This document shows, one piece after another, positions 3,001-61,603 of a stretch of 64,000 nucleotides of DNA (positions are counted from its first letter, which is position 1; each line of letters starts with the position of its first letter). The position numbers and the translations under genes are program-made. Origin of the DNA: a virus. A model generated the notes under the pieces. The model searched no databases and was not told the origin of the DNA. It saw only the letters and a list, made by a program, of their open reading frames with translations. The stretch lies in IMG/VR virus record IMGVR_UViG_3300027518_000004; one strand, 5' to 3'.

Positions 3001-6000
3001 CGACAGATGTTGCCGAACAGTTTATAACAAGAATGAACGAAGACGGAGTAAGTAAGGGTGGATTTTTAGAATTCACCCCAGGCGGTTCAGTAAAAGATAG
3101 AAATACAAGTACGACAACTAAATCTGAAACTAGTATAAAAACTTTAATTACCCCAGAAAAAATATCAGAAAAAGAATCTGTTTCTACTTCAGTTTCAGAG
3201 TATACACAACCTATTAGGTTTTTACGTAGCCGAAATATTGAGTTTGATGCAAGGGGCTTAAAACCAAGAACTGTATTTTATCCTTTTTTTCAGGGAGTTA
3301 AAATTAGTTCTTACATTACTCCTAAGTTACTTGAAATTGAAATGATTTCAGGGTCTTTTGATATCGGAGAAACCATAAATACTGATCCAACTTTTATTGA
3401 AAATAGAATATCATTTAGACTATGTGCTCCAAATCATAAATCTGGACCTTCTCGTAATCCTTCTGAAACCTTTGAATTTAATCCGTATAATCAACAACCA
3501 TTTGAAGAAAGATATACAAGAAGTTCAGATATTCTAAATGTTGATACTCGCTCCCTTCAGCTTGATTCTGAAAGTAAATTTTATGGCCAAGTAGTACCAA
3601 ATATGGTATTGGTTGGAAAGACTTCTGGTGCAAGGGCTCTTGTAAAAAGAGTAAGATTAGTTTCAGATAACAGTGGAACCCTTATTGGCTCATTTTATGT
3701 TCCTGATCCAAATATAAGAGGTAATCCTACTTGGATTAACGGAGAAAATACTTTTACCCTTATTGATACTCAATCCTTAGATGAGTTAAAATTAGTAGAA
3801 GTTATACCTAATTCTCAGATCAATGAAAGTAGCGCAGAGGCAACATTCTCATCTTCTGGTACTCAAGATATTAAGGAAACAAATATTCAAACGACCAGAA
3901 ATATTGTAATAAGACCTTCTAGGAATATTAATAAAACAACTATCAATAATGCTCCAGATACAGTAAGAATATCTCAACCATACGATCCGGTAGCTCAATC
4001 TTTTTATGTTAGAGAAGAGTCTGGTGTATTTTTAACTTCGGTTGATGTGTTCTTTGAAACTAAGGACGAAGATAATATTCCTGTTACGCTGCAGATAAGG
4101 CCCCTAATTGGTGGCGTTCCTAGTAATGTGGTAATTCCTTTCTCTGAGGTGACACTCACGCCAAATAAAATAAATATTTCTACTAAAGGGACAGTTGCAA
4201 CTAGATTTACCTTCCCATCTCCAGTTTATCTCCAAGGTCCTACTCAAAAAACCGTAAGACAATCACCAATAGCAAGTGAAACACAGGCTGAGTACGCGAT
4301 TGTAATATTATCAAATAGTCCCAATTACAGAGTTTTTGTAACTGAACTTAATCAAGAGGATTTAATTTCAGGAATCAAAGTTTCCAATCAAAACCAAACT
4401 ACTCTCGGAAGTCTATTTAAGTCTCAGAATGGAACTGTTTGGACACCTTCCCAATTGGAGGATTTAAAATATGTAATAAATCGTGCAGATTTTGTGAATG
4501 AAGGTCTAGTCAGATTCTTTAACCCCGAACTTGGTTTTGGTAATAAGCAGCTTACTATAACTGGCTCAAATCAAATAGAATTTTTATCTAAGAAAATTTC
4601 AGTTGGTTTAGGTTCCACTGGTTATTCATCCGAAGTTCAACCGGGCGTGACTATAAAACAAGGTTCTTCTTCCGGGACCCTAATAGGAATTGGCGGCAGT
4701 ATAACAACTGGGGCAGGCGTTGGAATTATTACAACCAATGCTGGGTTTGGTTATACAAATGGAACATTCTCCAGTGTTCAATTAGTTACTGAAACTGGTT
4801 TTGGTAACGGCGCAGTAGCAACAATTGAAATTACTAACAATGTCATAAACTCAGTCAATATCACTTCTGGAGGAAATGGTTACTCGGTTGGAGATTCTCT
4901 TATCGTGCCACCGTTAGGACAAGGTGTTGGCTTTGGTGGAAAATTAACTGTTTCCCAAATAAAATCAGCTAATACTTTTATCTTAGATGAAGTTCAGGGT
5001 AACTTTACGGTAGGATTAACAACAGTATATTATGTCAATTCTTCTGGGGTTGATACTATTGCTGGAGCCGGAGTCACAGTAAAATCAATAACTGAAGACC
5101 AATATTACGATGGCCTTCATATGAAAGTATATCAAGAAAACCACTGTATGCATTCATTTGAAAACGTTGTTCAAATAAGCGAATTTAGGCCATCAAATAA
5201 TGGCACTAATACTAAATTATCAGCTGATCTTGATAGAACAGAAAATGCAACGATTCCAGTAGTTTCAACTAGTGGGTTTGAGACATTTGAGGGTCTCAGT
5301 GTTAGTGCTCTAAACCCAGGTTATGTGATAATCGGGGAAGAAGTTATACAATACACTGGCATCTCTGGCAATACGTTAACTGGTGTGACCAGAGCAATAG
5401 ACTCTACTGATAGAAATACATATAAAAACAATACTCGCGTTTACAAATATGAATACAATGGGATTTCGTTAAGAAGAATTAATAAAATTCATAATTTTGC
5501 TGAAGTAGACCCCAATAGTACGGGTAAATTTAAAATAGACCTAAACAGCTATTTTATAAAAATCGATACCTCCGACACAGACTTTTTAAATAATACAATT
5601 GGTGTAAATAGAGAAAATAATTTATACTTTAAAAAGAATATTCAAGGTGGTTCTTCTGGTATTGTTATATCTAACAATATACAATATGAATCAATATCTC
5701 CAGATATTTCTTATCTCATCCCCCCTAAAACTGATATTTCATCTAGAATAAGAACCTTTACTGGCACTAGCGTAGGTGGAAATGAGAAATCTTTTGTTGA
5801 TAGGGGGTTTGAGGACATTGTTTTAGATGAGCAAATTTATTTTGATGAGCCAAAGATTATTTGTTCAGAAGTTAATGCTGAAAAATTTATCACTGAGGCT
5901 CCTGGGAATAGATCTCTTACTTTTGAAATGTTATTCACAACTAGAGATTCTAAAGTATCTCCTGTTGTAGATATGGTTAATTCTGCTGTTACATTATCAT

Positions 6001-59189: not shown

Positions 59190-59341
59190 TGATCCACATA
59201 ACTGACATTTATACTTTAAAAGCTAAACTGAATAACCTAAAAACTAGGCTCTATAATGAGCCTAGATCTCAACAAGAAAAGAATCTCGCTAATAAGTATC
59301 TTAATGAGGTTCTTTTTCTTGTGGATCAGCTGACTCTATAA
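59189..59341 (+). CDS. Small hypothetical protein (50 aa), not in the ORF track
   Basis: MIHITDIYTLKAKLNNLKTRLYNEPRSQQEKNLANKYLNEVLFLVDQLTL; TAATG overlap with the previous gene. Confidence 0.7.
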   Translation: MIHITDIYTLKAKLNNLKTRLYNEPRSQQEKNLANKYLNEVLFLVDQLTL

Positions 59342-59738
59342 CTAAACCGTAAATCCTCTCTACCTCACTAGTATAAAATTTTCCTTCAATATTAGTATTA
59401 TAATAACTTTCATCCATTAAAACATTTCTTTTAAATTGCTCGCATGTCTCATAATAAGACATGCTTTTTTTGTGTGGACATAAATACAAGATTTCTCTTT
59501 TAAATTTATCTTCCCCTAGATTTTTAACATCTTCTTTTAATTGATCGCAACTTCCAAAATATTTTCTCCAATCACTTTCTTTTGTTTGGCGTCTTCCAGT
59601 TTTTGGATTCTTTCTCCTTTCCCAAAAATGTTTCTTGCCGATATATTTCATCCCATTTTCAAGATTTGTTATTAAATAAACAAATCCTTCATATTTCTTA
59701 TCAACCTCATTAAATTCTTGACCGTTAAAAAACCACAA
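59301..59738 (-). CDS. GIY-YIG family endonuclease (conserved T4-like type)
   Basis: GFVYLITN...KYIGKK...ESDWRKYFGS...YYNTNI. Confidence 0.85.
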   Translation of the reverse strand: MWFFNGQEFNEVDKKYEGFVYLITNLENGMKYIGKKHFWERRKNPKTGRRQTKESDWRKYFGSCDQLKEDVKNLGEDKFKREILYLCPHKKSMSYYETCEQFKRNVLMDESYYNTNIEGKFYTSEVERIYGLVIESADPQEKEPH

Positions 59739-59764: not shown

Positions 59765-59771
59765 TATTTAT
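59765..59771 (-). promoter_or_regulatory. Late promoter ATAAATA (minus strand, GIY-YIG gene)
   Basis: Reverse complement of TATTTAT; overlaps the lysin start codon. Confidence 0.5.
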
Positions 59772-60492
59772 GGCCATGAAAATAGAACTTCAGAATTTCT
59801 TTAGATATTATAACCATAATTTACCAAAGCACCGGGCCGCCGTTGATGATTTGGTAAGGGTTTTAGAGCAAAAGGCCCCTGAACTTCTTGAAGATAATGC
59901 AAATTGGGTAAGAATTTATAGGAAACCAGAAGAGACACCTAAACCATCTGGTATTTTATTAGATGTCCCTTGGTTCCCGCAAACGGATAATTATGCCTTG
60001 CCCGATTCCACATGCAATTCTTCTGCATGTGCAATGTGCCTAGAGTTTCTAAAACCTGGATCTCTTCCACCTGGACCTAAAGGAGATGATGCTTATCTAA
60101 GAAAAGTATTGGCCATTGGTAAATCTGTTGATCATGGTGTTCAGACCAGAGTTTTGAGAAGTTATGGGGTTGAGTCGGTTTTTAGATATGACATGACATT
60201 TGCTGATCTTGATAAAGAACTAGAGGCCGGAAGACCTGTTGTGATTGGGTTTTTACACAGAGGTCCTGAAAGTGCTCCGACTGGTGGGGGTCATATGATT
60301 GTGGTCCGGGGTAAAACTGATAAGGGAGACTACCTGGCGAATGATCCTTACGGGGACCTTGCGGATGGGTACACTGGAGCCGTATCTAAAGGGAGAGGTG
60401 TTGTTTATTCGAGAAGAACACTAGAAAAAAGGTGGACTGTAAAACATCCGGTTGATGGGTGGGGCAGGATTTTTGATCCTGTAAAAAAGTAG
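59770..60492 (+). CDS. C39-like cysteine peptidase (putative endolysin endopeptidase) with an N-terminal helical domain
   Basis: QTDNY...TCNSSACAM (Gln/Cys), GGHMIVVRG (His), NDPYG (Asp) papain-like signature. Confidence 0.85.
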
Positions 60493-60520
60493 TAGAGGTA
60501 TCAGATAATACTGGTGCCTT
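60483..60520 (+). promoter_or_regulatory. -1 programmed ribosomal frameshift cassette (A_AAA_AAG, TAG, hairpin)
   Basis: GTA AAA AAG TAG in phase; 10-bp stem GAGGTATCAG/CTGGTGCCTT 5 nt downstream; the -1 frame is the GH19 frame. Confidence 0.8.
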
Positions 60521-61043
60521 GATTACAAAAAACCAACTCTCTCGCGTCTGGGATGTTTCTGAAATTAGTATTAGTGATAGGGTTATTAATGATTTAAACA
60601 GGTGTTTAAATCAATTTAATATTAATAAGCCTAATAGAATACGTCACTTTATTTCCCAGATCTCTCATGAATCTGGTGGAGGAAAATGGTTGAAAGAACT
60701 TGCTTCTGGTGATGCTTATGAATGGAGGACTGATCTAGGAAATACCCAACCAGGCGATGGTAGAAAATTCAAAGGCGCGGGATTCATCCAGATGACAGGT
60801 CGATACAATTACCAAAAGTTTGCGGATTTTATTAAGGACCCAAAAGTAATGGAAGGTGTTGATTATGTTTCCCTGAATTATCCTGCAACTAGTTCTGGTT
60901 TTTGGTGGCACACTAATAAAATGAATGAATTATGTGACACTAATCCAACCGTTGAGCAAGTAACCAGAAGAGTCAATGGTGGCACTAGGGGTCTTGCTGA
61001 TAGACAAATGTATTACAATAGATGTCTTGAGGTGTTCCGATGA
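60519..61043 (+). CDS. Glycoside hydrolase family 19 (chitinase-like phage endolysin); probably also or mainly the C-terminal half of a frameshift fusion
   Basis: [45 protein letters not shown] motifs; frame open from 60477. Confidence 0.92.
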
Positions 61044-61603
61044 AAGTCCCAGTAGAAATAGTTAATTATGCAATTTTTAAGGGGACTGATTTTGAAGAAG
61101 ATTTTCAACTTACCAACCAAAATGGAAATGTTATTAACTTGACTGGTTCTAGTATCCTGGCAAAAATTCAAAAGTATCCTGGATCTAAATTATTTAACAC
61201 ATTTAGTGTTGCTTATATTAATAGACCACAAGGAATCATAAAACTTCTGATGAGCAAAAATTCTACCTTGTTTTTAGAGGCCGGAAGAAATTACTTTGAT
61301 ATGTTTGTTGTTTACCCCAATAATAAAATAGAAATAGTGGCCCGTGGAACTATTCTTGTTCATGAAACAACAACTGCTATTACAAATGATGGTGGAAGAA
61401 TTGGAGATTTAGGAAGAGTGGATACTTCTGATATTCAAGATGGTGAAGTATTGATGTTTAATCAAGAAGATCAAAAACTTGAATTTGTAAATCCAGACGA
61501 GGTTCTGGAAAAAGCCGCCGAAGACGGCCTACCAGAAGAATTTGTTGATAGTGTCAATGATGACATAAGTAACAAATTTAATATTGATCTAGGAGAATAT
61601 TAA
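61040..61603 (+). CDS. Baseplate/fibre-associated protein (BppU-N-like beta domain plus fibre-repeat tail)
   Basis: [10 protein letters not shown]...[12 protein letters not shown]...GRNYFDM; [21 protein letters not shown]; ends IDLGEY. Confidence 0.65.

Follow-up and report, generated by a model that had tools for sequence, protein, structure and literature searches.

We analysed the junction between two predicted lytic enzyme domains in a 64,000-nucleotide stretch of viral DNA (IMG/VR record IMGVR_UViG_3300027518_000004; "the window" denotes this whole stretch), which belongs to a T4-like cyanomyovirus (Kyanoviridae) whose nearest public records are Synechococcus phages. Here the gene for a papain-like peptidase ends on a slippery heptamer, and a GH19-like glycosidase domain follows in the −1 frame. 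The reading that we hold with good confidence is that a conserved −1 programmed frameshift joins peptidase and glycosidase as one recoded lysin gene. Judged from the sequences of the relatives, the frameshift is a family-wide feature of Kyanoviridae lysin loci, mostly with a GH24 glycosidase, and is not peculiar to the window phage. The elements of the site are the following (aa, amino acids; nt, nucleotides; ORF, open reading frame; SD, Shine-Dalgarno).

59770-60492, plus strand: peptidase ORF in the zero frame, 240 aa, Peptidase_C39_2 (papain-like); short product and, in the predicted fusion, the N-terminal portion.
60466-60469, plus strand: SD-like AGGA, 13 nt 5' of the heptamer; possible 5' stimulator.
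60483-60489, plus strand: slippery heptamer A_AAA_AAG in X_XXY_YYZ phase; (60483-59770) mod 3 = 2.
60490-60495, plus strand: two zero-frame stops in tandem, TAG TAG, abutting the heptamer on its 3' side.
60495-60520, plus strand: hairpin, putative stimulator, with a 10-bp stem and a 6-nt loop, beginning 5 nt past the heptamer.
60489-61043, plus strand: −1 frame after the slip, 184 aa; a 10-residue linker, then the GH19-like domain from ~60519; stop at 61041-61043.
60519-60521, plus strand: TTG, first canonical start of the −1 frame and sole candidate start for a separate GH19 protein.

The peptidase ORF ends GAT CCT GTA AAA AAG TAG, with the second TAG at 60493-60495. The arms of the stem are GAGGTATCAG and CTGGTGCCTT, with three G.U pairs, and the stem can be extended by four outer pairs, to 60490-60525. 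Folding of the region 60490-60530 with ViennaRNA gave −14.4 kcal/mol with a z of −4.38, a stability reached by no dinucleotide shuffle out of 200; as no T-run follows the hairpin, it is not a terminator. An initial annotation of this DNA had described the end of the ORF, the in-phase heptamer, the hairpin and the open −1 frame, and every one of these sequence statements holds, as do the 240- and 424-aa products that it had predicted, since the 184 aa read in the −1 frame bring the fusion to 424 aa. The AGGA that it had cited as a 5' stimulator is likewise present, but a stimulatory role finds no independent support: the element overlaps the codons of an invariant W-G-R motif that frameshift-free relatives share, and so it carries no weight of its own. 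The Arg codon of this motif is CGT in the heptamer-bearing junctions of loci L025, L024 and L039.

In the mechanism that we propose, most ribosomes would translate 59770-60489 and terminate at the TAG at 60490, giving the 240-aa papain-like peptidase. A fraction of them, with tRNA-Lys on AAA and AAG, would slip in tandem one base back on A_AAA_AAG, stimulated by the 60495-60520 hairpin at the mRNA entry channel and possibly also by the abutting stop. Slipped ribosomes would then read the −1 frame through the 10-residue linker into the GH19-like domain and complete the 424-aa peptidase-glycosidase fusion, the glycosidase being without a dedicated start of its own. The slipping on host ribosomes, its efficiency and the cell-wall action of both products are what we infer here, and a fixed ratio of the two products may tune lysis chemistry.

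We rejected the heptamer as evidence by itself because its frequency is that expected by chance, AAAAAAG being present in 57 copies in the window compared with 59.5 expected in this AT-rich genome. The case for the frameshift therefore rests on the relatives. A search of IMG/VR with the peptidase recovered 71 loci (58-100% identical), to which cultured phages were added; once identical junctions had been merged, 48 distinct ones remained. Of these, 23 are of the frameshift type. They come from about 30 contigs and phages, and their peptidases again span 58-100% identity. All 23 carry GTA or GCA followed in phase by AAA AAG before the peptidase stop, either directly (17/23) or with 3 nt between (6/23), and in all 23, likewise in phage S-CAM7, the glycosidase domain starts 0-36 nt past the stop and always in the −1 frame. 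This domain is a GH24 phage lysozyme in 20 of the junctions and GH19-like in three, namely the window (identical to L005), L012 and L025. Among the remaining 25, 15 have, within 1.5 kb, a glycosidase gene that starts at an ATG of its own, often as an ATGA overlap with the peptidase stop, and usually with an extra N-terminal module of ~45 aa; in six no glycosidase was found within 1.5 kb; three are in-frame fusions; and one, S-CAM7, has another slippery site.

The initial annotation had pointed to homologous loci as the place where the signal should recur, and heptamer, stop and hairpin are indeed kept together across peptidases that are only 58-63% identical, a distance at which synonymous sites should be randomised. 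Codon usage in these peptidase genes does not favour the heptamer: Lys codons are AAA in 71% and AAG in 29%, Val and Ala codons end in A in 32%, and only 1 of the 11 Lys-Lys pairs elsewhere in the same genes is written AAA AAG. By codon usage alone the heptamer is expected ~0.066 times per locus, compared with 23/23 observed, a count that shared ancestry inflates.

The hairpin gives a second line of evidence. When the 55 nt past the heptamer were folded for each of the 23 junctions, the mean free energy was −15.0 kcal/mol and the mean z −3.06, with z below −2 in 19 of them; in all 19 the first paired base lies 0-8 nt past the heptamer. Internal control windows from the same genes had a mean z of +0.22, none of 23 falling below −2, and junctions outside the frameshift type had a mean z of −0.58, where two of the four low values belong to S-CAM7 and to a terminator-like hairpin (Mann-Whitney p of 1e-6 and 3e-5 for the two control comparisons). 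The stem sequences themselves vary widely, for example GTTCTACTC/GAGTAGAAC, GGCTCTGCAC/GTGTAGAGCT and GAGGCATCAC/GTGGTGTCTC. Within the GH24 group, codons of a G-V-E-L motif fall in the 3' arm, and alignments anchored on them contain as many as four kinds of Watson-Crick pair at a single position; because each pairing was taken from the fold predicted for that sequence itself, we treat this variation as supporting and not as a formal test of covariation. A double change from A-U to G-C separates the stems of L035 and L038, and the hairpin of the window is kept in L012 and in L025, the latter with C where the window has U opposite G. No significant hairpin was found in 4 of the 23 junctions, those of S-SRM01 (L002), L031, L032 and L052.

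The variant in S-CAM7 bears on the same question. Its peptidase gene has no A6G and instead reads GTT TTT TTT CCA CAG TAG, an in-phase U_UUU_UUU within an eight-T run, with a stem 5 nt past U_UUU_UUU (z −7.1) and GH24 in the −1 frame. The sequence here does not differ between two isolates that were sequenced independently (L004 2988-3035, NC_031927; L093 1588-1640, MT586120). Bacterial RNA polymerases can slip on runs of about this length, whereas six As fall below what they usually need. This bears on the proposal that the polymerase, and not the ribosome, adds one A in the A6 run, so that some mRNAs would encode an in-frame fusion, with no difference at the protein level from a ribosomal slip. 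One extra A does put GH19 in frame, and the T8 run of S-CAM7 is near the lengths at which bacterial polymerases slip, but the phase of the heptamer and its terminal G would be irrelevant to a polymerase and yet are invariant. Moreover, a hairpin 0-8 nt downstream with covariation is a hallmark of a ribosomal stimulator, and would still be untranscribed when the polymerase sits on the A run. Transcriptional slippage thus strikes us as quite improbable.

The third line of evidence is the scarcity of starts for the glycosidase. In half of the 20 distinct GH24 frameshift-type junctions, no ATG, GTG or TTG precedes the catalytic Glu (EFEG motif) in the −1 frame. The first start in this frame is at residue 93 in L034, at residue 68 in L040 and at residues 50-53 in L068, L041 and L044. 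In phage S-PM2 it is at residue 28, with the first ATG at residue 92, and the −1 ORF matches positions 1-125 of Pfam Phage_lysozyme from residue 21; this lysozyme cannot be made intact without the shift. In the window the −1 frame carries a complete GH19-like domain, and dependence on the shift is seen in the relatives (10/20 GH24 junctions and L025).

These observations also weigh on a reading of the locus as two separate, translationally coupled genes, in which a ribosome terminating on the peptidase would melt the hairpin that hides GAGGT and the TTG at 60519 and so release a 174-aa GH19 protein, the heptamer being mere codons of a conserved Val-Lys-Lys tail. The TTG does stand at the beginning of a full GH19-like domain, homology setting in immediately behind this codon, both GAGGT and TTG lie inside the stem, and the ATGA-type overlap junctions indicate that coupled separate genes exist at this locus. 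However, the TTG, which the initial annotation had considered as the GH19 start, is not conserved. It is TTA in the GH19 relative L025 (peptidase 63% identical), which has no canonical start for 40 codons, and TTA (Leu) also occupies this position in L081-L084, whose GH19 domains are 91-94% identical to that of the window and are C-terminal in longer YkuD-containing proteins. In view of these TTA codons, the TTG of the window most likely encodes a Leu inside the fusion. A distance of 19 nt between SD and start is in addition poor, and ten GH24 junctions built in the same way, with heptamer, stop and hairpin, lack any start ahead of the catalytic Glu. The junctions that do bear a start, with ATG or TTG two codons past the slip site (S-SRM01, L031 and L032), are without a significant hairpin, the reverse of the pattern expected if the hairpin served coupling, and the conservation of AAA AAG against codon usage is left unexplained. 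We consider coupled separate genes unlikely, and the comparative tests across relatives strongly support the −1 frameshift that the initial annotation had placed at the core of its reading.

A missing A in the assembly, which would make this a plain fused gene, had been raised from the start as a further concern. Comparison with other metagenomes, for which assembled contigs were used, gave two contigs from other freshwater studies (X3 and X4) that keep A6G and TAG and whose sole difference from the window over 601 nt is T60499C. This substitution turns a U.G pair of the stem into C-G, strengthening it, and is the same change as in L025. The six As are also kept in L012 and in both S-PM2 records, the Sanger-sequenced original and the 2015 re-sequencing.

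Besides the chance frequency of the heptamer, several points weigh against the frameshift. No RNA run was among the sequencing runs listed for this stretch. The slipperiness of A_AAA_AAG is established for the E. coli type of tRNA-Lys, and the presumed host here is picocyanobacterial. Several heptamer-bearing junctions have an incidental in-frame TTG, GTG or ATG before the catalytic motif, and the window phage itself has its TTG with GAGGT 19 nt upstream, so some independent GH19 initiation is possible; coupled initiation at 60519 may be a minor route in this phage, but it cannot explain the family. There are only three distinct GH19-type junctions, in which the 3' stem arm is identical, so covariation in the stem of the window comes from changes in the 5' arm only. 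Finally, one low-depth aquatic contig (X5) is without 3 nt of the A run of the heptamer (60483) and without 1 nt of the A6 run at 60527-60532. Homopolymer error is the probable cause of these differences, which could alternatively be a real variant with both the signal and the GH19 frame broken. They also enter the case for an artefact or decay, where the true gene would be in frame and disrupted either by a homopolymer error in assembly or by a recent inactivating frameshift mutation. The site is a homopolymer, natural in-frame fusions exist, and X5 differs in length in two A runs. Against this, A6G and the stop recur in independent assemblies (X3, X4, L012 and L025) and across 23 distinct junctions including S-PM2, the −3 and −1 nt differences of X5 restore no in-frame fusion, and a conserved stop, spacing and hairpin are not expected under decay. 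We consider such an origin of the site very improbable.

Natural in-frame fusions of the kind that the initial annotation had suggested looking for do occur. The 'endolysin' of phage MA01 (WVQ00239.1) joins C39 to a GH19-like domain in 422 aa, gp211 of ACG-2014f (YP_009134422.1) joins C39 to GH24 in 405 aa, and L013, L075 and L049 are further C39-GH24 fusions in frame, two of the three keeping the heptamer. Their existence indicates that a C39-glycosidase fusion is a viable lysin architecture. In domain order, and roughly in length, MA01 and ACG-2014f agree with the predicted 424-aa product of the window. They differ in using a single frame, whereas the window needs the −1 shift and could in addition produce the peptidase by itself. 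In ACG-2014f (L077 ~2200-2260), L013 and L075 (~3200-3290) an in-phase A_AAA_AAG is followed by a hairpin (z −2.5 to −2.8), and a stop in the −1 frame lies one codon past the slip. From these sequences, a −1 slip in the three would yield a short peptidase-only protein, that is, the same two products with the default inverted.

Phage B3 gp326 was also tried as a natural C39-GH19 fusion and was rejected, its N-terminal domain being YkuD. This protein (L003 1634-2896; 420 aa) has the order YkuD (L,D-transpeptidase fold), small module and GH19, and its gene is at the syntenic place, between a GIY-YIG gene and a tail-fibre assembly gene. Its GH19 domain is 70% identical to that of the window. In gp326 and in L081-L084, GH19 domains 70-94% identical to that of the window are always the C-terminal part of a longer lysin, as in the predicted fusion; the N-terminal partner differs in having an L,D-transpeptidase fold and in being joined in frame, with no frameshift signal. 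Counting gp326 and L081-L085 beside the window, the GH19 module is paired with at least two unrelated peptidase-type partners.

The identities of the two domains rest on different matches. The peptidase matches PF13529 (Peptidase_C39_2) in Pfam with 42.3 bits against a cut-off of 24, over residues 64-194 and with the full profile covered, and PHROG 10051 'endolysin' at 3e-83; C82/C87, H175 and D192 are invariant among 50 homologues. A sequence search found no solved relative, and it is the PHROG 'endolysin' labels that suggest activity on peptidoglycan. For the downstream domain the match to Pfam Glyco_hydro_19 (PF00182) stays under the cut-off (15.5 bits against 25.5; E 0.015), so the label "GH19-like" relies on homology to PHROG 181 'endolysin' (8e-39) and PHROG 14712 'chitinase' (7e-28) and to solved phage endolysin chains in the PDB (9ms7, 7e-26; 9hqw, 2e-23; 4ok7, 7e-15). 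The domain contains a 10-residue motif that we take to be the catalytic Glu region.

The distribution of the junction types points to exchange of the downstream part. In the peptidase tree the types are interspersed, and well-supported branches force at least 4 changes for the GH24 frameshift type. The peptidase of the window is 90-92% identical to those of L006 and L007 up to the W-G-R codons, two loci that lack a frameshift signal. Past that point the window agrees instead with L012 and L025, in the last seven codons of the peptidase with their FDPVKK tail, in the hairpin and in GH19. This switch marks a putative recombination joint at the 3' end of the peptidase gene (window 60450-60492 against L006/L007 3190-3214). 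Given both the interspersed tree and the switch, the signal and the start-less glycosidase behave as an exchangeable unit that is joined just past W-G-R. Recombination may have attached the cassette, with GH24 or GH19, to various peptidase genes at their last codons, and the family may have two settings that give the two proteins in opposite proportions, with a short zero-frame and a long −1 product in the window, S-PM2 and S-CAM7 and the inverse in ACG-2014f, L013 and L075. We offer only tentatively the wider idea that heptamer, stop and hairpin form a mobile cassette with start-less glycosidases, that the family toggles its default and that recoding is a dial of the peptidase-to-glycosidase ratio.

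The ~45-aa module (I-K-F-x-D-A-x-K...Y-R) is found on separate glycosidases (L026, L029, L033, L064, L066, L071, L006, L021 and L030) and in B3 gp326 (L003 2216-2386), and it resembles the first ~55 aa of the peptidase (window 59770-59940). BLASTP found no homology between these 55 residues and the 45-aa glycosidase module, and hhalign of the peptidase N terminus with the module gave an E of 0.0027 with a probability of 11%, a result that is suggestive only of an N-terminal module shared between the peptidase and the separate glycosidases. A possible rationale is a need for one small N-terminal module in every lysin polypeptide, of which a start-less glycosidase would gain a copy only via fusion.

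The surroundings of the locus differ between phages, the window having tail-fibre-type neighbours after GH19 and the lysin locus thus adjoining tail-fibre genes, in place of nrdAB in S-PM2. The gene at 61040-61603 overlaps the GH19 stop (ATGA 61040-61043) and matches the PHROG L-shaped tail fibre assembly protein at 1.5e-14, and a long tail-fibre-like ORF extends from 61967 onward. No tRNA genes were found within the window. Directly upstream of the peptidase lies one further gene.

59301-59738, minus strand: segE-like GIY-YIG homing endonuclease gene (Pfam 6e-39).

The proposed signal is of a known kind. E. coli dnaX (tau/gamma) has the same A_AAA_AAG, a 3' stem-loop a few nt downstream and two products that share their N-terminal part in a set ratio, and the window, too, has a G-rich SD-like element upstream. 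In dnaX, however, the slip gives the short product, whereas here it would give the long one with a second catalytic domain, and the 5' SD element is without conservation support here; a closer match would be the in-frame relatives ACG-2014f, L013 and L075, with their heptamer, hairpin and −1 stop. The orfA-orfAB arrangement of the IS3 family (IS911, IS150) also has A_AAA_AAG near the stop of the upstream ORF and a stimulating downstream structure, and there, too, the slip joins the upstream ORF to a domain without an efficient start of its own. The products differ, being a transposase and a regulator in IS3 elements and cell-wall enzymes here, where the signal and domain are exchanged as a unit with two unrelated glycosidase folds. 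Among phages, the tail assembly chaperone (G/GT) and capsid frameshifts similarly use a conserved −1 slip to make a short and a C-terminally extended protein, but for structural and assembly proteins rather than lytic enzymes.

The nearest published item is the genome note of Alteromonas phage H4/4, where an endolysin gene and the gene of an internal virion protein are proposed to be connected by a slip (PMC5658483). Full-text literature searches, whose coverage did not include the S-PM2 genome paper, gave no account of two lytic enzyme domains being linked by a frameshift. The mechanism itself is known; what is new, as far as we have checked, is its use in linking two lytic enzymes, on a cassette that is exchangeable and comes with two glycosidase folds. 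The public records of S-PM2 (2005 and 2015) and the two of S-CAM7 contain no joined coding sequence and leave 236-290 nt after the peptidase unannotated (L001 3083-3355, S-PM2 NC_006820; L092; L004 3005-3242; L093). They call instead a 72-90-aa 'putative lysin' from an internal ATG, without the catalytic Glu, and the full Phage_lysozyme domain begins within this gap, in the −1 frame of the peptidase.

If the frameshift is real, it would correct the annotation of a whole group of cyanophage genomes, and it can be tested directly, as S-PM2 and its host Synechococcus WH7803 are both cultured. In phages it would add lysis enzymes to the tail-chaperone and capsid genes for which programmed frameshifting is known, with one mRNA giving a peptidase and a peptidase-glycosidase fusion in a built-in ratio. 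The family, with its separate genes, its frameshift-joined genes using two slippery sites and its in-frame fusions, would then be a natural comparison set for asking why the ratio of two wall-degrading activities, or their physical coupling, is important against the thick picocyanobacterial wall.

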